DNA from: a virus
Lineage: Duplodnaviria > Heunggongvirae > Uroviricota > Caudoviricetes
IMG/VR virus record: IMGVR_UViG_2740892213_000014
Length of the DNA stretch: 25,754 nt
Strand: one strand, 5' to 3'
Every line of letters begins with the position of its first letter. Positions within the stretch are counted from its first letter, which is position 1. Of the stretch, positions 1-10,266 are shown in pieces. Under the pieces are notes generated by a model. That model did not search any database. It worked only from the letters and a program-made list of their open reading frames with translations, and was not told where the DNA came from. Both the position numbers and the translations under genes were made by a program.

Positions 1-993
1 CTAATCGATGGACAGTTTATGGACACTTTCAGCCAGCGGATTAAAGTTGATCGCGTCCAGTAAAAAGTCCGGCGAAAAATGAGCGTACGTCATTGTTTGC
101 TGAATCGTTGCGTGCCCCAGGATTCGTTGCAACGTAACAATATTTCCGCCATTCATCATAAAGTGTGTGGCAAATGTATGACGCATGACATGCGTAGCCT
201 GCCCCTTCGGCAAATCCGGTTTCACCTCCTGAAGAATCTCCCGGAACTTCAGATAATCAACCTGATACAATAACCCCGTTCGACGGGTTTTAATCAGAGG
301 CACGACCGAATCCGCCACAGGAACCGAACGGGATTTTCCGTTTTTGGTGTTAAAGAACGTCACCCGGTTGCCAACGATATGCTCTCCACGTAGTTCCGAT
401 GCTTCACTCCATCGGGCACCAGTAGAAAGACACAGAATGGCAACACGACGCGCATCACCCTCCAGTCGCTCAAGAAGCCGTTCAATCTCATCATCAGAAA
501 GAAAGGCCATCTCTGTGTTCTGAACTTTCAGTTTTCGTATACCGCGTACAGGGTTCGCGTTGTGAAAGACCTCAGCTTCAATCAGCACCGTGAACATGGT
601 AGACAGTACGCATAAGTCACGATTAATACTGGACGGCATTAATCCGGCCTGTAATTTCTCTGACCGATATTCAAGCATAAATTTTCGCGTCATCTGACTG
701 GCGCGAGGATCTCCCATTTCACGAACAACCTTCCCTAGCCTAACCCTGTAGCTATCCCCGTAAGCCTGATTACGCCCATCAAGCATCCACCACGCATCAA
801 GCAGCTCTGATAATCGCCGCTGATCAGCTGGCTTAGCCTGCCATGGCTTGTCATGAAAGTTCTGTAACACATACTTCTCAAACTCCTGAGCCTTTGATTT
901 CAGGGCAAAGATTTTTCGAATCCGCTTTCCTTCCGCCCCCTGCGGTCTGACATCGACCTGATAACGTCCGTCTTTGAGTTGCTTAATCGACAT
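1..993 (-). CDS. int: Phage tyrosine integrase (P2-type site-specific recombinase); stop codon at 1-3
   Basis: ORF track 1..1008 translation has tyrosine-recombinase C-terminal signature (…HVMRHTFATHF…LGHATIQQTMTYAH…). Start placed at ATG 993 (MSIKQ…) because the track start at 1008 is TTG, and a GGAGGGG Shine-Dalgarno lies just upstream of 993. Confidence 0.9.
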   Translation of the reverse strand: MSIKQLKDGRYQVDVRPQGAEGKRIRKIFALKSKAQEFEKYVLQNFHDKPWQAKPADQRRLSELLDAWWMLDGRNQAYGDSYRVRLGKVVREMGDPRASQMTRKFMLEYRSEKLQAGLMPSSINRDLCVLSTMFTVLIEAEVFHNANPVRGIRKLKVQNTEMAFLSDDEIERLLERLEGDARRVAILCLSTGARWSEASELRGEHIVGNRVTFFNTKNGKSRSVPVADSVVPLIKTRRTGLLYQVDYLKFREILQEVKPDLPKGQATHVMRHTFATHFMMNGGNIVTLQRILGHATIQQTMTYAHFSPDFLLDAINFNPLAESVHKLSID

Positions 994-1062
994 GATTAGC
1001 CCCTCCAACGGATAAATTAACTAAACACTCCTTGCGATATGTAATTCGCTCAATGTGTAGAG

Positions 1063-1404
1063 TCAGCCAACATTGCGGCCTGATCGGGGTGATTTTTGGG
1101 TAATACCGATTGAAACCTGATCGCCCTCCGACTGAATAGATCCATCAAGAGAGAGAGCCGGAGCAATCTGCCCGGCGACAGGTAGCGTCTTATCTTTTAT
1201 TAGCCACAGCATGTATTTTTCAAAGCGATCGACTTGCAGAACCGCCTCAACGATTTTTGCTCTAGCGTTCTTTTGCCCCGATTCGTAATTCCTTATGGTT
1301 GCCAAAGACAACCCAGTAATATCCGCAAACTGCTTTTGTGTTAACCCTTCCGCCTTACGTATCTGACGTAACTTTTTTGCGTAGTCTATTGACAAGATAA
1401 CCAT
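1063..1404 (-). CDS. C: Immunity repressor, P2 C-like (HTH)
   Basis: Start moved to internal ATG at 1404 (MVILSIDYAKKL…). HTH segment LTQKQFADITGLSLATIRNYESGQ and C-terminal GQIAPAL motif recalled from the P2 C repressor family. Adjacent to int and divergent from the cox-position gene. Confidence 0.75.
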   Translation of the reverse strand: MVILSIDYAKKLRQIRKAEGLTQKQFADITGLSLATIRNYESGQKNARAKIVEAVLQVDRFEKYMLWLIKDKTLPVAGQIAPALSLDGSIQSEGDQVSIGITQKSPRSGRNVG

Positions 1405-1447
1405 TTGAGTATTAACCTCTCGCACAAAGATAACCTTTTGGTTATCT
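1389..1447. promoter_or_regulatory. Immunity switch region: -35-like TTGACA (1389-1394) abutting half-site AGATAACC (1395-1402); perfect 20-bp palindrome AGATAACC-TTTT-GGTTATCT (1428-1447)
   Basis: Read directly from sequence. Three copies of an 8-mer lie between divergent repressor and cox-position genes, consistent with repressor/Cox operator sites in a P2/186-type switch. Confidence 0.45.
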
Positions 1448-1508
1448 TTACAAGCCAAAACAAACCATCACAAGGCGCGACAAGCGCACCAACGCAAGAG
1501 GATAACAA

Positions 1509-3153: not shown

Positions 3154-3432
3154 ATGACCAAAGAGCATGCACAAGGTGTATTTATTCGTTTTATTGATTT
3201 TCGCGGTGAACTGTTATTACGCGCATCAGCTATTGATGGAGTCGTTCCATCCGAAAAAAATGCAGCTACTTACGTTTATCTGAACGGCACGCGCCTGACC
3301 GTAGAACTTCCGTACCAGACTGTACACGAAATCATTAGCGAAGCGGAAAAAGCACGTAAGACTAATGGCGATGAACCCTATATCGAAATTATTTGTATGG
3401 ATTCAGAAGCAGAAATTCAGAAAGCAGATTAA
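3154..3432 (+). CDS. Hypothetical early protein, 92 aa
   Basis: Start moved to ATG 3154 (MTKEHAQGVF…) with AGGTG RBS at 3144-3148. Confidence 0.55.
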   Translation: MTKEHAQGVFIRFIDFRGELLLRASAIDGVVPSEKNAATYVYLNGTRLTVELPYQTVHEIISEAEKARKTNGDEPYIEIICMDSEAEIQKAD

Positions 3433-3443
3433 AGGGCGTTGCG

Positions 3444-3686
3444 ATGGGCAAAGAATATAAAACTCTCATTAATAAAGCACTTGAGCGTTTTTATTTTCGC
3501 TTAAGTGCATCAGGCGCTCATGCTGAACGTGCAGCCCGTGACTCATTGACCAGGGCAATCCGGAGTCTGTATGACGTGGCTTTTTACGCTGATGATCTGG
3601 ATGCACTTAACGAACTTTCCGAGCTGATCTGTGCCGCAGAATGCGGGGAACATATTGAACCGTATAAGCTGGGGAATATTGCATGA
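3444..3686 (+). CDS. Hypothetical early protein, 80 aa
   Basis: Start moved to ATG 3444 (MGKEYKTL…); AAAGGG upstream. Confidence 0.5.
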   Translation: MGKEYKTLINKALERFYFRLSASGAHAERAARDSLTRAIRSLYDVAFYADDLDALNELSELICAAECGEHIEPYKLGNIA

Positions 3687-4328: not shown

Positions 4329-4532
4329 ATGGCAATTAAGCATTTTCCCGTCGTTCGCTTTACCTCCAGAGGGCGCGAATACGAGGTCGACGAACGCCTG
4401 ATTACCACTATCGACAAACATCGTTCGGAAAAGGATGCACACCACATCTACCTCACTGACGGCACTTACTTCTGCGCCACCAACGTGGCGCGGGTGAATC
4501 TTATCCGACAGGTACAGGAGCCACGCAGATGA
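4329..4532 (+). CDS. Hypothetical early protein, 67 aa
   Basis: ORF track; AAGGGGG RBS upstream of ATG 4329. Confidence 0.5.
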   Translation: MAIKHFPVVRFTSRGREYEVDERLITTIDKHRSEKDAHHIYLTDGTYFCATNVARVNLIRQVQEPRR

Positions 4533-4795
4533 CCATTCTGGACTACATCGCTACTCATCCGGGGTGTAGCGGCGGAGAGATCGCCGCAGCACTGAATACT
4601 CCAACCACAGCCATTAATGCTGAGTTACGCCAACTTTGGCGCGGCGGCTTAGTCATCAGAACAAACCGCAGCACAGGTGGTCGCGCTCGCAAAACTGGAG
4701 GCCAGGCTTCTTACCACGTAAACCCGATGCCGTTCGGGTGTAGCAATCCACTTACTCACATGTTTAACCAGCTACTGAAGGAAGCCAGAGCATGA
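4529..4795 (+). CDS. Hypothetical protein, 88 aa, possible winged-helix DNA-binding fold
   Basis: ORF track; start overlaps stop of previous gene (coupled). HTH-like N-terminal segment; fold assignment is inference only. Confidence 0.5.
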   Translation: MTILDYIATHPGCSGGEIAAALNTPTTAINAELRQLWRGGLVIRTNRSTGGRARKTGGQASYHVNPMPFGCSNPLTHMFNQLLKEARA

Positions 4796-5091: not shown

Positions 5092-5213
5092 GAAACCAGA
5101 GCATGCACACACAAAAAAACCGCTTGCCATGCCGCAATCGGTCAGGTTACATTTCCGCTGCACCTCATAAAACGGGTGCCGGGATTCTCAACCCGATACA
5201 GAGCAAAGCGCAT

Positions 5214-5236
5214 AACCGCGCCAGCGGTTTTTTTGT
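5214..5236 (+). terminator. Candidate intrinsic terminator: stem AACCGC/GCGGTT, loop GCCA, then 7-T run
   Basis: Read directly from sequence at 5214-5234; lies in a ~320-bp non-coding gap inside the early operon. Confidence 0.45.
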
Positions 5237-5413
5237 GCGTACTGTATTGCCACGTCTTTTTCGCGTCAGAATTATGGCGGGGCGTACGGGGCCGACTTCG
5301 GTCGGGCCGGATTCTTTGCTCTCCGGTGTTGAGAACCCTGTACGTCTCGCCACCCCGAGATTCTCAACTCTGGATGGTGAGTTATTTCTATCACCGAGCA
5401 AAGAGGCCACACC

Positions 5414-5644
5414 ATGGCAAACCGCAAACAGCACCGCGCTATCGCGGAGCGTCGTCACATCCAGACTGAAATCAACCGCAGACTTTCCCGCGCATTCCGC
5501 GTCGCTAAAATCATGCACATCAATATGCTGCATGAGCGTAGCTGCGAACTTTCAAACCTCTACTCATCCGCTGTTTTCAGCTATCTGGCGGATGATCTGC
5601 GCGAGCTTCAACAGCTCATCCAGCAGCAAAACAAACTCCATTAA
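5414..5644 (+). CDS. Hypothetical early protein, 76 aa
   Basis: ORF track; AAGAGG RBS at 5401-5406. Confidence 0.55.
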   Translation: MANRKQHRAIAERRHIQTEINRRLSRAFRVAKIMHINMLHERSCELSNLYSSAVFSYLADDLRELQQLIQQQNKLH

Positions 5645-5716
5645 TTCCTGTTCCGGGCCTTTCCTGCACCTTGCGGCGGGAGGCCTTCGCACATCTGTAA
5701 CAAGAGGATTGCCGCA

Positions 5717-6082
5717 ATGATTCTCGCCAACGACTTTCTTGAATACCTGCTCAACACAGAGCGTGATCTTGCCGCTCGCGTACGTGATCGTTATGACATG
5801 TATCTGAAATCCCTGCCTGTGCCGCAGCTCGCTGACGGAAAGATTGTTATTGATGGTCGCTACATGATTGACAGCCACGAGGGAAATTACAGGCTTTACC
5901 GCATTGAAGGTGGCACCCCGTCCGTTATTGGCATTTACCAGCGCCCATCCTCTGCAATCGTCGATGTGATTGCCGACAGCATCCGCATCACACATCGCCA
6001 TGCCGACACAGAAGACACCGTGCTGGAAATTCAGCGGCTGGCTGCCGTCTGCCGCGACACCCTGAATGGCATGACGAAGTAA
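5717..6082 (+). CDS. Hypothetical early protein, 121 aa
   Basis: ORF track; AGAGGA RBS upstream; immediately precedes gene A. Confidence 0.55.
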   Translation: MILANDFLEYLLNTERDLAARVRDRYDMYLKSLPVPQLADGKIVIDGRYMIDSHEGNYRLYRIEGGTPSVIGIYQRPSSAIVDVIADSIRITHRHADTEDTVLEIQRLAAVCRDTLNGMTK

Positions 6083-6088
6083 ATCACT

Positions 6089-8911
6089 ATGACGGCAGAG
6101 TACATCAGGGACTGGCAACAACCGCGCCACGCAGTGGGACGTGAAGGAACGGGGATCCCCGTTCCTGAATCCGCGCTTTCCTCCTGGCTGGATGCCTACC
6201 GGGCAGAGAACGAGCGCCGCCAGGAAATGGCTGATGCGGCGTTCTCCGCCACGCCGCTGGGCAACCTGATTAATAAAAGCCTGGATGCACAGGAAAAACA
6301 GGACAAAACCATCACACTGGCAGGAGACGCCAGAAAACAGGTACGCGGTGCGGTGGATGAAGCCATGGCCTCGCTGCGCCTGCTGCCGTCCTATCTGCGC
6401 GATCCGCTTATTCGCCACCTCTCCTTCCTGCGCAAAAAACAGGAAGCCGATCGCCGGAAAGGCAAAAAGAGCTGGCAGGCTGAACGCTACGCGCGCGGAA
6501 CCCTGCGCAAAATATTCGAACGTCTGGACCGCACCGACCACCGCTGGCTGACACCGGGTTATCGCTCCCTTGCCGGACGCGAACGCCTGGATGATTTGCT
6601 TTACCTGCCGCAGCTCAACAAGCACCAGATACAGACGCTGGCCACCATGACGGCGGCGATGTTCAGCAGCACCTTCGAAAAACTCTGCGATGGCTTTGGC
6701 GCGACTGATGGCGAGCTGACCATGGATGTAACGCTGAAGGCGTATCAGATGCTGGCCCGCATGGCGTTACACCTGCACGCCATGCCTCCGCATTATGACG
6801 CACTGACAACAGACAAAGACCGGAGGAACGAACCGGACACGGAGCTGCTGCCGGGCGCAATCCTTCGCCTGACCTGTGCGGAATGGTGGAAACGCAAACT
6901 GTGGCTGTTACGTTGCGAGTGGCGGGAAGAACAACTCCGCGCCGCCTGTCTGGTTTCCAGAAAAACATCGCCCTATCTGAGCCAGGACGCGTTAAGCGAG
7001 TTTCGCGCACAGCGCGAGAAAACACGCGATTTCCTGAAAAGTTTCATGCTGGAAAACGAAGACGGGTTCACGATTGATCTCGAGACGGTGTATTACGCGG
7101 GAGTAAGTAACCCGGTTCACCGTAAGGCAGAAATGATGGCCACCATGAAGGGGCTGGAACTTCTGGCCGAAGCCCGTGGCGACAAAGCGGTGTTTCTGAC
7201 TGTCACCTGCCCGTCAAAATACCACGCCACAACAGAGAACGGTCATCCGAATCCCAAATGGAACGGGGCCACCATGCGCGACTCCAGCGATTACCTGGTT
7301 AACACGTTTTTTGCGGCGGTCCGCAAGAAACTGAACCGCGACGGCCTGCGCTGGTATGGCATCCGCACGGTGGAGCCTCACCATGACGGCACCGTGCACT
7401 GGCATATGATGGTCTTTGCTCATCCGGAAGAAATCGACACCATTGTGTCCCACACCCGCGATATTGCCATTCAGGAAGATCGTCACGAGCTGGGTGATGA
7501 TATTACCCCACGCTTTAAGGCGGAGTACGTCGACGGCTCAAAAGGCACACCGACCAGCTACATCGCCACCTACATCGGGAAAAACCTGGACAGCCGTGCC
7601 GTGGATGGCATCGACCCGAAAACGGGCAAGCCACGCGTTGACCACGAAACCGGAAAATCAATGGCCGAGAGCGTGGAACGCGCCATCGGCTGGGCGCGCC
7701 TTCACCGGGTCCGCCAGTTCCAGTTCTTTGGTATCCCCTCCCGTCAGGTGTGGCGTGAACTGCGCCGCCTTGCCAGCCAGATGGCTCGCAACCCGGAAGG
7801 ACCGCAACGGCTGAAGGATGACGCAATGGACGCGGTTCTTGCTGCCGCTGATGCCGGATGTTTTGCCACCTACATAGAGAAACAGGGCGGCGTACTTGTT
7901 CCACGCAAGGACTACCTGATTCGCACCGCCTACGACCTCGCCGATGAGCTGAACGATTACGGTGAACAGAGCGTACAGATTTACGGGATCTGGTCACCGC
8001 TCATCGGGGAGTCTTCCCGCGTATGCACGCATCCGGACAACTGGAAGCTGGTAAGACGCAAACCGGAAGCGGAAGACAGCGCCCGCGAAAATGGTTTTGA
8101 CCTTCAGGGCGGCCCTGCCGCACCTTGGACTCGTGGCAATAACTGTCCCCGTGTACAGGAAACGGACAACAACGGGACAGAACAGCCGGAAGAACGGCCA
8201 GCACCGTGGCCGCAGCTTCCTGACGGCGTTGACGTGAACGAATGGATGCGCTCACTGAAACGGCACGAACGCCGGGCGCTGATGCGTTCGCTGCGTGACA
8301 AACAGGCAAAAAACAGCAGTGATGAAATGCAGAGCTGGACACAGAGCCGCAAACAGCAGCGGCCTTTGCCTGATAACCACGAATTACTCGCTAAAGAATG
8401 GCGGGAATCTGCCGAATCTCTCGGCCTGCATATCGGTGAACAGCAGATGCAGCACCTGTTACGGGGCGGCAGCCTGTACGTTGACGGCAGCATCATTGCA
8501 CCGCAGGGATTTGAAATTGTACGCAAACCGGATACCCGCCCGGACAGCCGAATCACGCAGCTCTGGCAGCGCCTGAGCCGTAATCACGGCGTAAGCAGCA
8601 CGGAGATCCGCCATAACCCGGTCGCCAGCTATCTGGAACAGCTGGGGGCATCAGACCCCGAAGCCGCCGCACGTCTGGCATCCACACTTCAGCAGGACCA
8701 GAACACCATGAACCCCCCCGTTACCGTGCTTTCTGACATGCTGCGCGCCATCCGCGACGCAGAGCACGCACAGAGAATCAGTGAAACCACTGAACGTGCC
8801 CGCCGCAAAGCAGACCTGCTGCGGGGTGGCCTGACCAGTGGAAACAAAAAACAGACAGAAACGGGATTCACAAATCCCGTAAATGAGCAAAAAACGCGCC
8901 GCGATATATGA
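6089..8911 (+). CDS. A: Rolling-circle replication initiator / replication endonuclease, P2 gpA family, 940 aa
   Basis: HUH-type motif VHWHMMVF and paired catalytic tyrosines in SYIATYIGKN (Y-x3-Y) are typical of gpA/phiX174-A-type initiators. Position between early genes and portal matches P2 synteny. Protein is longer than I recall for P2 A, with a C-terminal extension. Confidence 0.88.
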   Translation: MTAEYIRDWQQPRHAVGREGTGIPVPESALSSWLDAYRAENERRQEMADAAFSATPLGNLINKSLDAQEKQDKTITLAGDARKQVRGAVDEAMASLRLLPSYLRDPLIRHLSFLRKKQEADRRKGKKSWQAERYARGTLRKIFERLDRTDHRWLTPGYRSLAGRERLDDLLYLPQLNKHQIQTLATMTAAMFSSTFEKLCDGFGATDGELTMDVTLKAYQMLARMALHLHAMPPHYDALTTDKDRRNEPDTELLPGAILRLTCAEWWKRKLWLLRCEWREEQLRAACLVSRKTSPYLSQDALSEFRAQREKTRDFLKSFMLENEDGFTIDLETVYYAGVSNPVHRKAEMMATMKGLELLAEARGDKAVFLTVTCPSKYHATTENGHPNPKWNGATMRDSSDYLVNTFFAAVRKKLNRDGLRWYGIRTVEPHHDGTVHWHMMVFAHPEEIDTIVSHTRDIAIQEDRHELGDDITPRFKAEYVDGSKGTPTSYIATYIGKNLDSRAVDGIDPKTGKPRVDHETGKSMAESVERAIGWARLHRVRQFQFFGIPSRQVWRELRRLASQMARNPEGPQRLKDDAMDAVLAAADAGCFATYIEKQGGVLVPRKDYLIRTAYDLADELNDYGEQSVQIYGIWSPLIGESSRVCTHPDNWKLVRRKPEAEDSARENGFDLQGGPAAPWTRGNNCPRVQETDNNGTEQPEERPAPWPQLPDGVDVNEWMRSLKRHERRALMRSLRDKQAKNSSDEMQSWTQSRKQQRPLPDNHELLAKEWRESAESLGLHIGEQQMQHLLRGGSLYVDGSIIAPQGFEIVRKPDTRPDSRITQLWQRLSRNHGVSSTEIRHNPVASYLEQLGASDPEAAARLASTLQQDQNTMNPPVTVLSDMLRAIRDAEHAQRISETTERARRKADLLRGGLTSGNKKQTETGFTNPVNEQKTRRDI

Positions 8912-8987: not shown

Positions 8988-9947
8988 ATGAAAATTTGTA
9001 TCGACGACGGCTCCACCAACATCAAGCTGGCATGGACTGAGAATGGCGAACGCCGCAACGCCATCAGCCCGAACAGCTTCAAGTCGGAATGGTCTGCGCC
9101 GTTCGGTGGCATGCAGCCCGCGAACTACATGCTTGATGGCGTGCGCTATGGTTTTGATCCGGTCAGCGATCGCTTTGTCCAGACGACCGACACGCAATAC
9201 CAGTACAGCGATGTGAATGTAATCGCCATTCATCACGCGCTGGTCAAATCAGGCATCACGCCACAGGAGGTGGATGTGGTTGTCACCCTGCCACTGAGCG
9301 AGTATTTCGACACAAACGCACAGCCGGACATGGCCAACATCAACCGCAAAAAAGCGAACGTTATGCGCCCGGTGGAGTACCAGAACGGCGAAGCATTCAC
9401 TATCCGTAACGTGCGGGTTATGCCTGAATCCATTCCGGCTGGCTTTAAAGCACTGGCTGACATGAGTCCGTTTGAATCCCTGCTGATTGTGGATTTAGGC
9501 GGAACCACGCTGGATGTGGCAAAGGTTCAGGGGCAACTGGCAGGTATCAGCCAGGTGTTTTGCGATCCACACGTAGGCGTCTCCCTGATGGCCGGTGCCG
9601 TGCTGTCGGTGATGGCCGCTAACGGTATGCGTACCAGTCACCACATCGCCAATACCATTATCGAACATCGCCATGATGAAGCCTGGTTGCGCCAACACAT
9701 CCACAATGACGCGCATTACGCCAGCCTGATGGCGGTTATTCGTGAAAAGGAAGAAACACTGAAACAACGCGTGATCCGCGCGCTGGCGGGTTTTTCGGGT
9801 TACGGGCGGGTGATGGTTGTCGGTGGCGGGGCGGAGATTGTGGCACCCGCTATCCGCGAAGCCTGCGGAGTTAATGCGACTTTCATCGCGGACGGGGTGC
9901 CACAGTTTGCTCTGGTTAATGGGCTGTACGCAATGGACAAGGAGTAA
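8988..9947 (+). CDS. parM: Actin-like segregation ATPase, ParM/StbA family, 319 aa
   Basis: Long-range similarity to plasmid R1 ParM as I recall it (N-terminal IDDGSTNIKL, YSDVNV…HHAL, VMPESIPAG, DLGGTTLD, VGGGAE). AAGGAA RBS upstream. Confidence 0.8.
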   Translation: MKICIDDGSTNIKLAWTENGERRNAISPNSFKSEWSAPFGGMQPANYMLDGVRYGFDPVSDRFVQTTDTQYQYSDVNVIAIHHALVKSGITPQEVDVVVTLPLSEYFDTNAQPDMANINRKKANVMRPVEYQNGEAFTIRNVRVMPESIPAGFKALADMSPFESLLIVDLGGTTLDVAKVQGQLAGISQVFCDPHVGVSLMAGAVLSVMAANGMRTSHHIANTIIEHRHDEAWLRQHIHNDAHYASLMAVIREKEETLKQRVIRALAGFSGYGRVMVVGGGAEIVAPAIREACGVNATFIADGVPQFALVNGLYAMDKE

Positions 9948-9951
9948 ACCA

Positions 9952-10266
9952 ATGACGACACCAACCAGACGGATAAGTTTCTATCTGAAGCCAGTCGCCG
10001 TCAATAGTGAACGGGAGGCGTGTAATTACCTCGACAGCCTGCCAGCCTCTGAACGCAGCCGCGCGCAACGCGCGGCCTTTCTGGCCGGGCTGGCACTCAT
10101 AAAACGCGATCCTGCATTTGCCTATTGGTTGGCCGAATGGCCGGAAGAAGGAGCTGCGCCAGCCAAGAATAATATTCAGAGTAAATATGCCAGCACACCT
10201 GCCACCGGAAGCAATCACAGCACTAGCGAGATAAGAAAGAACATTCAGTCATTTTTCCCAGAGTGA
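9952..10266 (+). CDS. parR: ParR/StbB-like centromere-binding adaptor, 104 aa
   Basis: Start moved to ATG 9952 (MTTPTRRISFYLKP…), 5 nt after parM stop, with AAGGAG RBS. Segment DSLPASERSRAQRAAFLAGLAL resembles R1 ParR as recalled. Confidence 0.65.
   Translation: MTTPTRRISFYLKPVAVNSEREACNYLDSLPASERSRAQRAAFLAGLALIKRDPAFAYWLAEWPEEGAAPAKNNIQSKYASTPATGSNHSTSEIRKNIQSFFPE

Follow-up and report, generated by a model that had tools for sequence, protein, structure and literature searches.

In bacteriophages P1 and P7, which are the founding members of the Rfam family RF01695, the segments a′ and b′ of an antisense RNA pair with the boxes a2 and b2 at the ribosome-binding site of the first open reading frame (ORF), and these targets are duplicated upstream. 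One transcript carries both the antisense RNA and its target, and the output of the system is an anti-repressor. The c4 system of P1/P7 was reportedly worked out by Citron and Schuster in 1990 and by Biere and colleagues in 1992, and its a/b boxes are said to define heteroimmunity. In the P2-family coliphage 186, an anti-repressor, Tum, is controlled by LexA and makes the phage inducible with a repressor that is non-cleavable. IsrK and C4 RNAs are structural homologues of the seqA and CI RNAs of P4, and the name IsrK-C4 immunity system has been given to them (PMC3632133; PMC4825925). In the Gifsy-1 prophage of Salmonella, where the order is IsrK, orf45/STnc1160, and AnrP, IsrK controls the translation of the anti-repressor and the induction of the prophage (PMC4825925). 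Here I describe the IMG/VR virus record IMGVR_UViG_2740892213_000014 (25,754 nucleotides; the whole stretch is called the window), which is a P88-like prophage (Xuanwuvirus, P2 family). The island between positions 5103 and 5413 in its early operon is very probably an IsrK-C4 antisense-RNA immunity cassette. My literature search found no paper linking C4 or IsrK to P2-like phages, and the locus is not mentioned in the paper on Hfq cross-linking and immunoprecipitation in enterohaemorrhagic Escherichia coli or in its supplements.

As listed in Table 1, an Rfam scan of the window at curated thresholds gave exactly two matches, isrK and C4, which are adjacent, lie on the plus strand, and both cover the full-length model. 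The minimum free energy (MFE) fold of the IsrK-like RNA is the family consensus, with three hairpins, the last of which is an intrinsic terminator. P4 and other modules also have this terminator hairpin, formed there by different sequences. The IsrK-like RNA is the counterpart of the P4 seqA leader and of the Rfam element c4-a1b1 (RF03163), and the C4-type RNA that of P4 CI RNA. The MFE fold of the C4-type RNA is identical to its own family consensus (-47.6 kcal/mol); an outer stem encloses a UUCG-capped hairpin 1 and a hairpin 2, leaving unpaired the loop of hairpin 2 (a′) and a single-stranded junction (b′). The original prediction, made from the letters of the DNA alone, had named RNA folding and covariation across homologous prophages as checks on a structured island. 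The folds are better than chance in each case (z = -3.1 for IsrK, z = -4.9 for C4, and z = -4.5 for the transcript from 5160 to 5430). In the MFE fold of the last, unprocessed RNA, a′ and b′ pair in cis with a2 and b2, and the Shine-Dalgarno sequence of the gene at 5414 is buried.

A terminator-like hairpin with a run of seven T residues had been noticed in the island, and the terminator scan finds it (stem 5214-5219/5224-5229, loop GCCA, T-run 5228-5234). The CCGAC-UUCG-GUCGG hairpin is also present; the original prediction did not place it in an 88-nucleotide C4-type RNA. The 8-mer TTCTCAAC does occur three times, on the plus strand at 5185-5192 and 5361-5368 and inverted at 5328-5335, the first copy lying one base to the left of the position given earlier (5186-5193). 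These are the only copies in the window, where 0.69 copies are expected, and three or more copies were seen in 4 of 100 shuffles. That all three fall inside 184 nucleotides should be far less likely than the count alone. A second repeat set had been overlooked. GAGCAAAG is found at 5201-5208 and 5396-5403 on the plus strand and inverted at 5314-5321, and the extended repeat ACmGAGCAAAG occupies 5198-5208 and 5393-5403, with its inverted copy at 5313-5322.

The inverted copy of TTCTCAAC is b′ and the inverted copy of GAGCAAAG is a′; b′ is complementary to b1 and b2, and a′ is complementary to a1 and a2. Box b1 is displayed in the loop of the second IsrK hairpin and a1 in a single-stranded linker, and b2 lies four bases past the end of C4. 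Box a2 overlaps the Shine-Dalgarno sequence AAGAGG, which ends 7 nucleotides before the ATG at 5414; these Shine-Dalgarno-covering a boxes had also escaped notice. The b2/b′ inverted repeat (I2) is 14 nucleotides long and 86% complementary, with a duplex energy of -17.0 kcal/mol, and the a2/a′ inverted repeat (I5) is 9 nucleotides long and 100% complementary, with a duplex energy of -18.0 kcal/mol.

Is this complementarity maintained in related prophages? Outside the six boxes, the island hardly varies among 13 P88-like loci, and the boxes themselves change in concert. The same contrast is seen within C4, whose scaffold is nearly invariant and whose segments a′ and b′ are hypervariable. When C4 is set against a2/b2 in these loci, 95% of the cells are paired, compared with 40-49% when the partners are slid by one to three columns. 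Nine of the 17 pairs are double-changed, and the score was attained in none of 500 shuffles. Compensatory double changes occur in four of the eight pairs of the b2 box and in five of the nine pairs of the a2 box, where 98% of the cells are paired. For C4 with a1/b1, the paired cells amount to 90% against 28-55% for slid partners, and 10 of 20 pairs are double-changed. The boxes co-vary in these loci.

The same relation was assessed in a broader sample of 54 distinct C4-type RNAs with full flanks, collected by scanning viral contigs for the conserved C4 core. An exact complement of at least 7 nucleotides is present in the cognate locus for b1 in 96%, for b2 in 93%, for a2 in 83%, and for a1 in 67% of cases, while non-cognate pairings give 8%, 7%, 9%, and 10%, respectively. 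In this sample, too, the scaffold is conserved and a′/b′ are hypervariable. The complements lie at fixed offsets; in 93% of the 54 loci, that of b′ is located at +2 to +7 past the end of C4. New alleles, again matched in all boxes, come from three more genomes, namely E. albertii, Salmonella, and a contig that is probably mislabelled. A genome-contig scan with the epsilon-like profile returned three loci, adding extra alleles and little breadth. There are at least eight distinct box alleles, and the a and b alleles reassort: one locus (L129) has the b allele of the window with another a allele. The record of this locus is titled Vagococcus sp. WN89Y and contains a P88-like enterobacterial prophage module with an epsilon-like protein 84% identical to that of the window; the Gram-positive label is probably due to contamination or a mislabelled assembly. 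In this sample, no a/b alleles were shared between P88-like C4 RNAs and P4-like or lambdoid ones. A lambdoid viral contig (L026) has two complete isrK-C4 modules in tandem (4574-4762 and 5233-5421) whose a/b alleles differ. Further C4 targets were sought with a whole-window duplex scan, which was not specific, and the extra GAGCAAAG copies at 1680, 7414, and 19719 have no b box and were taken as chance.

The first gene after the island encodes a 76-residue protein resembling the P4 anti-repressor epsilon, and it is annotated as "derepression protein" in P88 and in RefSeq. BLASTP aligns it with P4 epsilon at 29% identity (E = 1e-8), and a profile of ten epsilon-like homologues matches P4 epsilon with an hhalign probability of 93% (E = 2.4e-7). 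P4 epsilon itself is the archetype of PF25738 (170 bits). The ratio of nonsynonymous to synonymous polymorphism (pN/pS) is 0.42 in the epsilon-like frame, with third-position changes in excess, indicating purifying selection. It has been reported that P4 epsilon inactivates the P2 C repressor (as cited in PMC8628076, PMC2669165). The C repressor of the window shares 36% identity with P2 C (E = 2e-23). Among the 54 loci, the first gene after C4 mostly encodes an anti-repressor of the Ant type, a peptide resembling Kil/Icd (in P4-like elements), or an epsilon-like protein (in P88-like phages), and the theme that C4 gates an anti-repressor holds in the window. It was also observed that the C repressor is only 38% identical to that of P88 (L001, 1170-1451), though the DNA of the island and the epsilon-like gene is about 89% identical. 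Since both the C repressor and the a/b boxes differ from those of this close relative, repressor immunity and RNA immunity both vary.

The original prediction had suggested a short plus-strand RNA ending at the T-run. Such an RNA is predicted by the isrK match together with a conserved promoter-like site, whose start, about 6 nucleotides past the -10 hexamer and thus near 5160, is the isrK 5′ end given by Rfam. Both hexamers are invariant in the 13 P88-like loci, including loci with another left flank, and the isrK elements of P4 and lambdoid modules are likewise preceded by -35 and -10 hexamers at the corresponding position. In its position, the candidate site is the analogue of the P4 PLE promoter. 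A second promoter-like site (TTGCCA at 5247, AATTAT at 5275) was not counted; its -35 hexamer varies among homologues. Matches to the LexA box CTGT-N8-ACAG were at chance level in the scan, with none near the island. LexA control of the switch was likewise dropped as a candidate; the half-site TACTGTAT at 5243-5250 is not conserved.

Upstream, an A-run with a hairpin overlaps the -35 hexamer. The segment 5107-5127 is an inverted 21-nucleotide copy (90% complementary) of the 3′ half of the IsrK terminator and its T-run, and on the minus strand the element reads as a terminator-like hairpin followed by T7. Its fold has an energy of -11.4 kcal/mol and a z of only -0.9. It is conserved in P88-like loci, one of which (L064) retains the A-run with a different hairpin, and it is absent upstream of isrK in P4 and lambdoid modules. 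Since every minus-strand frame across the island has two to seven stops in all homologues, the minus-strand coding sequence annotated in P88 is probably spurious.

How may the cassette work? The identity and the folds of both RNAs, the complementarity and co-variation of the boxes, the overlap of a2 with the Shine-Dalgarno sequence, and the homology between the target and P4 epsilon are established here; promoter activity, RNase P excision, Rho polarity, the action of the epsilon-like protein on C, and the direction of the IsrK effect are drawn from analogy. Most transcripts from the candidate promoter would end at the IsrK terminator, yielding an IsrK-like RNA of about 75 nucleotides. The remaining transcripts would read through into the C4-type RNA, which may be excised from the longer transcript by RNase P at its 5′ end and trimmed at its 3′ end, as judged from P1, P4, and Gifsy-1. 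Whether processed or in cis, a′ and b′ would pair with a2 (5396-5405) and b2, and translation of the epsilon-like gene would be blocked because a2 covers its Shine-Dalgarno sequence. The untranslated C-rich message would then probably undergo Rho-dependent termination before orf121 and the replication gene A, so that neither would be expressed from the IsrK promoter. The segment 5360-5680 is C-rich and G-poor (GC skew -0.17 to -0.27), a composition compatible with Rho loading. Since the decoy boxes b1 and a1 of IsrK are identical to the targets, this RNA could compete for C4 or be a second target and may tune the switch in this way. The a/b box sequences, which differ between otherwise near-identical phages, would be the specificity (immunity) determinants. 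The earlier idea that the island regulates downstream genes fits the mechanism of the C4/CI family, whose pairing boxes co-vary here, and in combining such control with a small RNA the original prediction was correct for the most part. As for A, which had been singled out, the direct target would be the epsilon-like gene instead, and control of A would be indirect, via polarity.

Judging from the literature on P1, P4, and Gifsy-1, the epsilon-like protein would inactivate the P2-type C repressor of the prophage. P88 was recovered after mitomycin C treatment and is inducible and plaque-forming (PMC5285337). The P2-like prophage Sp13 of O157 has an epsilon-like gene and is mitomycin-inducible, and its repressor has no peptidase motif and is non-cleavable (PMC2669165). 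Inactivation of C by the epsilon-like protein would fit both reports.

Several points weigh against this interpretation. The epsilon-like protein has 76 residues, compared with 95 in P4 epsilon, and it scores just above the Pfam cut-off; the C-terminal 30 or so residues of P4 epsilon have no counterpart in it. There is no Icd/Kil-like first ORF, as the NCBIfam Icd-like model matches the P4 ORF and none of the window ORFs. An ORF of this type is outside the Rfam definition of C4, and its absence is a difference from P1 and P4. Because co-variation was scored on mosaic loci that are related to each other, the cell counts overstate the independent events. The promoter, terminator, and Rho steps at this locus are derived from consensus scans and analogy. 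Published accounts of the IsrK element disagree on its role, which is an activating one in Gifsy-1, whereas P4 requires the element for establishing immunity. Thus, the sign of the IsrK effect in the window is uncertain. Lastly, a long ORF that runs through the island is open beyond chance expectation, and translation through the RNAs may modify the picture.

Table 1. Positions of the features of the island and its surroundings in the window
Feature	Position	Strand	Basis or remark
Integrase gene	1-1008	-	First gene in the window
C repressor gene	1063-1458	-	P2-type
Winged-helix (MarR-like) gene	4529-4795		Just upstream of the island
Through-ORF ("Ash" frame)	5103-5720	+	205 residues; ORF scan
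A-run and hairpin	5107-5141		Inverted repeat I1; overlaps the -35 hexamer
Promoter-like site	-35 TTGCCA 5124-5129; -10 TACATT 5148-5153	+	Consensus scan; 18-nucleotide spacer
isrK (RF01394)	5160-5234	+	62.8 bits (gathering score 50); model 1-77 of 77
Box b1	5185-5192	+	IsrK hairpin 2
Box a1	5200-5208	+	IsrK linker
Intrinsic terminator	5214-5234	+	Last IsrK hairpin
C4 antisense RNA (RF01695)	5270-5357	+	78.5 bits (gathering score 45); model 1-87 of 87; E = 4.5e-14
C4 outer stem	5275-5291/5336-5352	+	MFE fold
C4 hairpin 1 (UUCG)	5292-5305	+	MFE fold
C4 hairpin 2	5306-5327	+	MFE fold
Segment a′	5312-5321	+	Hairpin 2 loop
Segment b′	5328-5335	+	Junction
Box b2 (TTCTCAAC)	5361-5368, extended arm to 5374	+	Pairs with junction b′
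Box a2 (GAGCAAAGA and a G-U pair at 5405)	5396-5406	+	Overlaps the Shine-Dalgarno sequence
Shine-Dalgarno sequence AAGAGG	5401-5406	+	Epsilon-like gene
Epsilon-like anti-repressor ("derepression protein") gene	5414-5644	+	76 residues; Pfam PF25738 Derepression, 29.5 bits (cut-off 27)
orf121	5717-6082	+	No assigned function; downstream of the epsilon-like gene
Replication gene A	6089-8911	+	Pfam Phage_GPA, 438 bits; PHROG 91 "nicking at origin"

The original prediction stated that no convincing ORF covers the island. An ORF does exist, since the 205-residue through-ORF spans it entirely, crossing IsrK, C4, the target boxes, and, out of frame, the epsilon-like gene; the part of the statement that holds is that the tests point away from a conventional protein gene. 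It could be argued that the island is ordinary coding sequence for the N-terminal half of an "Ash family" protein and that the hairpins and repeats are incidental. The name "ash family protein" is indeed assigned by the Prokaryotic Genome Annotation Pipeline in some RefSeq genomes, and the stop codon overlaps the ATG of the next gene (ATGA, 5717-5720). The frame is open in 16 of 17 P88-like loci, for which the chance is about 0.055 over the island and about 0.049 over the epsilon overlap, the joint chance being roughly the product of the two. However, pN/pS in this frame is 1.0-1.3 in every sub-region, in contrast to the 0.42 and the third-position excess of the overlapping epsilon-like frame, which means that the product is not constrained, and only the boxes, which co-vary as RNA pairs, differ in sequence between loci. 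The similarity to Phage_ASH (PF10554) is weak and falls short of the threshold (18.7 bits; cut-off 26), and NCBIfam gave no match. In E. albertii (L127), the epsilon-like protein is 100% identical to that of the window, but the through-ORF is truncated inside the gene (about 3360-3560; open only to +197). Other RefSeq records leave the island unannotated and give only "derepression protein", and a non-coding RNA is never annotated. The 197-residue ORF over seqA-CI-kil in P4 (L002, 8168-8761, minus strand) scores 82.4 bits with Phage_ASH over residues 20-144, and this match overlies the isrK/seqA and C4/CI RNA matches; thus, PF10554 looks like a translated RNA-conserved region. The immunity factor of P4 is an RNA (as cited in PMC4825925, PMC3632133). 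The opposite strand, too, often has an open frame across C4, at 27 of 60 loci compared with 44 of 60 on the sense strand, so that composition explains a part and the higher figure is no proof of selection. An Ash protein is therefore unlikely as an explanation of the island, and the through-ORF is probably not a conventional protein gene.

A device resembling P4 eta, in which only the act of translating the through-ORF matters, is compatible with the IsrK-C4 cassette and would be an addition to it. I consider it quite possible, if somewhat short of probable. Ribosomes on early transcripts from the upstream promoter Pe might suppress the IsrK terminator, the folding and pairing of C4, and Rho loading; lytic transcripts might thus be insensitive to the immunity and could reach orf121 and A by translational coupling. 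The ORF begins 12 nucleotides past the preceding stop codon and 21 nucleotides before the -35 hexamer, hence upstream of the candidate IsrK promoter, ends in the ATGA shared with the next gene, and stays open across many box alleles at a pN/pS of about 1. The 197-codon ORF of P4 has the same frame relative to the RNAs, covers seqA-CI, and ends as kil, and lambdoid modules have through-frames in frame with the anti-repressor gene. I take this P4 ORF to be eta. Forti and colleagues reportedly found in 1999 that eta starts upstream of PLE and that its translation prevents timm termination of PLL transcripts. On the other hand, the Shine-Dalgarno sequence before the ATG at 5103 is weak, the frame is truncated in the one locus and has a different end in three, and the opposite-strand control is high. 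Could the TTCTCAAC and GAGCAAAG repeats instead be operator-like DNA sites, for example for the product of the adjacent MarR-like gene? They are short and clustered near a promoter-like site, this winged-helix gene is just upstream, and the original prediction had offered protein binding as one option for the 8-mers. Yet in each set two copies are direct and the third is inverted, and this third copy coincides exactly with an unpaired segment of a folded RNA. The copies co-change as antiparallel Watson-Crick partners of the C4 RNA, with G-U pairs tolerated, which is the signature of RNA-RNA pairing and not of protein sites, and the same geometry is found in modules that have no MarR-like neighbour (P4, lambdoid phages, and others). 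Operators are thus extremely unlikely. That the cassette is a non-functional remnant is also very unlikely. Many such prophages are defective, for example Sp13 in O157 Sakai (PMC2669165), but the cassette is present in the inducible, plaque-forming P88 (PMC5285337), and the coordinate replacement of the six boxes in many alleles over a near-invariant scaffold requires continuing selection for pairing.

The IsrK-C4 cassette of the window lies in a typical P2-like setting. After the integrase gene come those for a P2-type C repressor and a Cox-like protein; a rightward early operon follows, with replication gene A at its end, and then ParM-like partition genes, portal, and terminase. Over 556 bases around the island, the identity to Escherichia phage P88 and other Xuanwuvirus genomes is 88-89%. 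The cassette was found in 1285 of 5426 complete E. coli genomes (about a quarter), and the exact 46-nucleotide C4 core allele of the window in 499 of them, including many O157:H7 strains. In O157:H7 strain 86-24, for example (L126, 3300-3850), the island with the identical C4 allele is in a P2-like prophage, which is presumably Sp13/CP-933T. In the early region of canonical P2, neither isrK nor C4 RNA is present. A scan of the DNA for tRNA and tmRNA gave no match. Directly after A, there is a gene for a ParM/StbA-like actin-type partition ATPase (8988-9947), and beside it a gene for a Plasmid_stab_B-like protein within 9817-10266. Together they form a segregation module of the plasmid type (8988-10266) within a P2-family prophage, and the annotation of P88 has the same genes.

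The mechanism itself is not new, as the family has been known since 1990 and Rfam detects it with high scores. A further reading, which I hold to be less likely than not, is that P88/Sp13-type phages took up an entire RNA immunity layer of the P4/P1 style, by which an epsilon-type anti-repressor is gated directly and A via polarity, and that the 205-residue frame acts like eta. If so, these phages would have a two-tier immunity, made of the C repressor and the C4 RNA, with many a/b specificity alleles. This could explain the mitomycin induction of Sp13 and P88 despite non-cleavable P2-type repressors, and the 205-residue frame translated on Pe transcripts would override the RNA block in lytic growth. 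Helper phages and their P4-like satellites would then have both the RNA logic and the anti-repressor family in common, so that cross-talk via a/b alleles or via epsilon proteins may be possible. An IsrK-C4 switch before an epsilon-like gene offers a testable route to the published puzzle of the induction of P2-like prophages (PMC2669165). There is also an annotation problem. PF10554 "Ash" corresponds to a translated RNA region and not to epsilon, P4 epsilon being PF25738, and PF10554 has served as an epsilon marker in a survey of P4-like satellites (PMC8628076). What seems worth pursuing is the placement of the cassette in P2-family helper phages before an epsilon-type gene, the diversity of its alleles, the Eta-like frame, and the annotation problems.

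Lastly, the locus was compared with the known systems. Tum of coliphage 186 is a functional analogue, being an anti-repressor in a P2-family phage. It is under the transcriptional control of LexA, whereas the window would use an antisense RNA. The a1 b1, a′ b′, a2 b2 geometry of P1/P7 immI (a1 b1 - c4 - a2 b2 - icd - ant), to which seqA, seqB, and seqC of P4 correspond, was verified in the window. In contrast to immI, the anti-repressor of the window is of the epsilon type and not Ant, there is no icd, and the cassette lies inside an early replication operon. As is predicted for the window, Gifsy-1 has an IsrK with its own promoter and a leaky terminator, and its output is an anti-repressor that induces the prophage (PMC4825925). 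The read-through RNA of Gifsy-1 is silent, as the middle of IsrK pairs with the downstream region, and the MFE fold of 5160-5430 in the window resembles this silent "structure A"; a processed stable RNA, STnc1160, follows downstream (PMC4825925). Gifsy-1 differs in being a lambdoid prophage whose anti-repressor belongs to another family and is reached via a 45-codon upstream ORF; its downstream RNA was not framed as C4, and activation by IsrK was shown there, while it would hold in the window by analogy (PMC4825925).

In sequence, the RNA scaffold of the window resembles the Stx/lambdoid type more closely than the P4 type. The isrK-C4-antirepressor modules of Stx and other lambdoid phages share about 71% nucleotide identity over isrK-C4, nearly the same scaffold, and the same box offsets with the window. 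Their a/b alleles are different, and their first gene encodes an Ant-type anti-repressor of 181-187 residues, in frame with the through-ORF. The P4 immunity region (PLE - seqA - CI RNA/seqB - seqC - kil/eta - epsilon - orf151 - cnr - alpha) has Rfam matches to isrK (8692-8615) and C4 (8507-8420) on the strand of the left operon, followed by kil, epsilon, orf151, cnr, and alpha. It differs from the window in several respects. The window has no Kil/Icd ORF between C4 and the epsilon-like gene, which is the first and directly targeted gene and is out of frame with the through-ORF, and orf121 has no similarity to P4 orf151. The replication gene of the window encodes a P2-type nickase, A, and that of P4 the alpha primase; the window holds a complete phage of the P2 family that has a C/Cox switch of its own, and P4 is a satellite. 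What the two share is both Rfam families in the same order and on the same strand, promoter-like hexamers directly upstream of IsrK/seqA, an antisense RNA between two copies of its target, a long through-ORF that reads the RNAs in the same frame, and, downstream, an epsilon-family gene followed by a replication gene.

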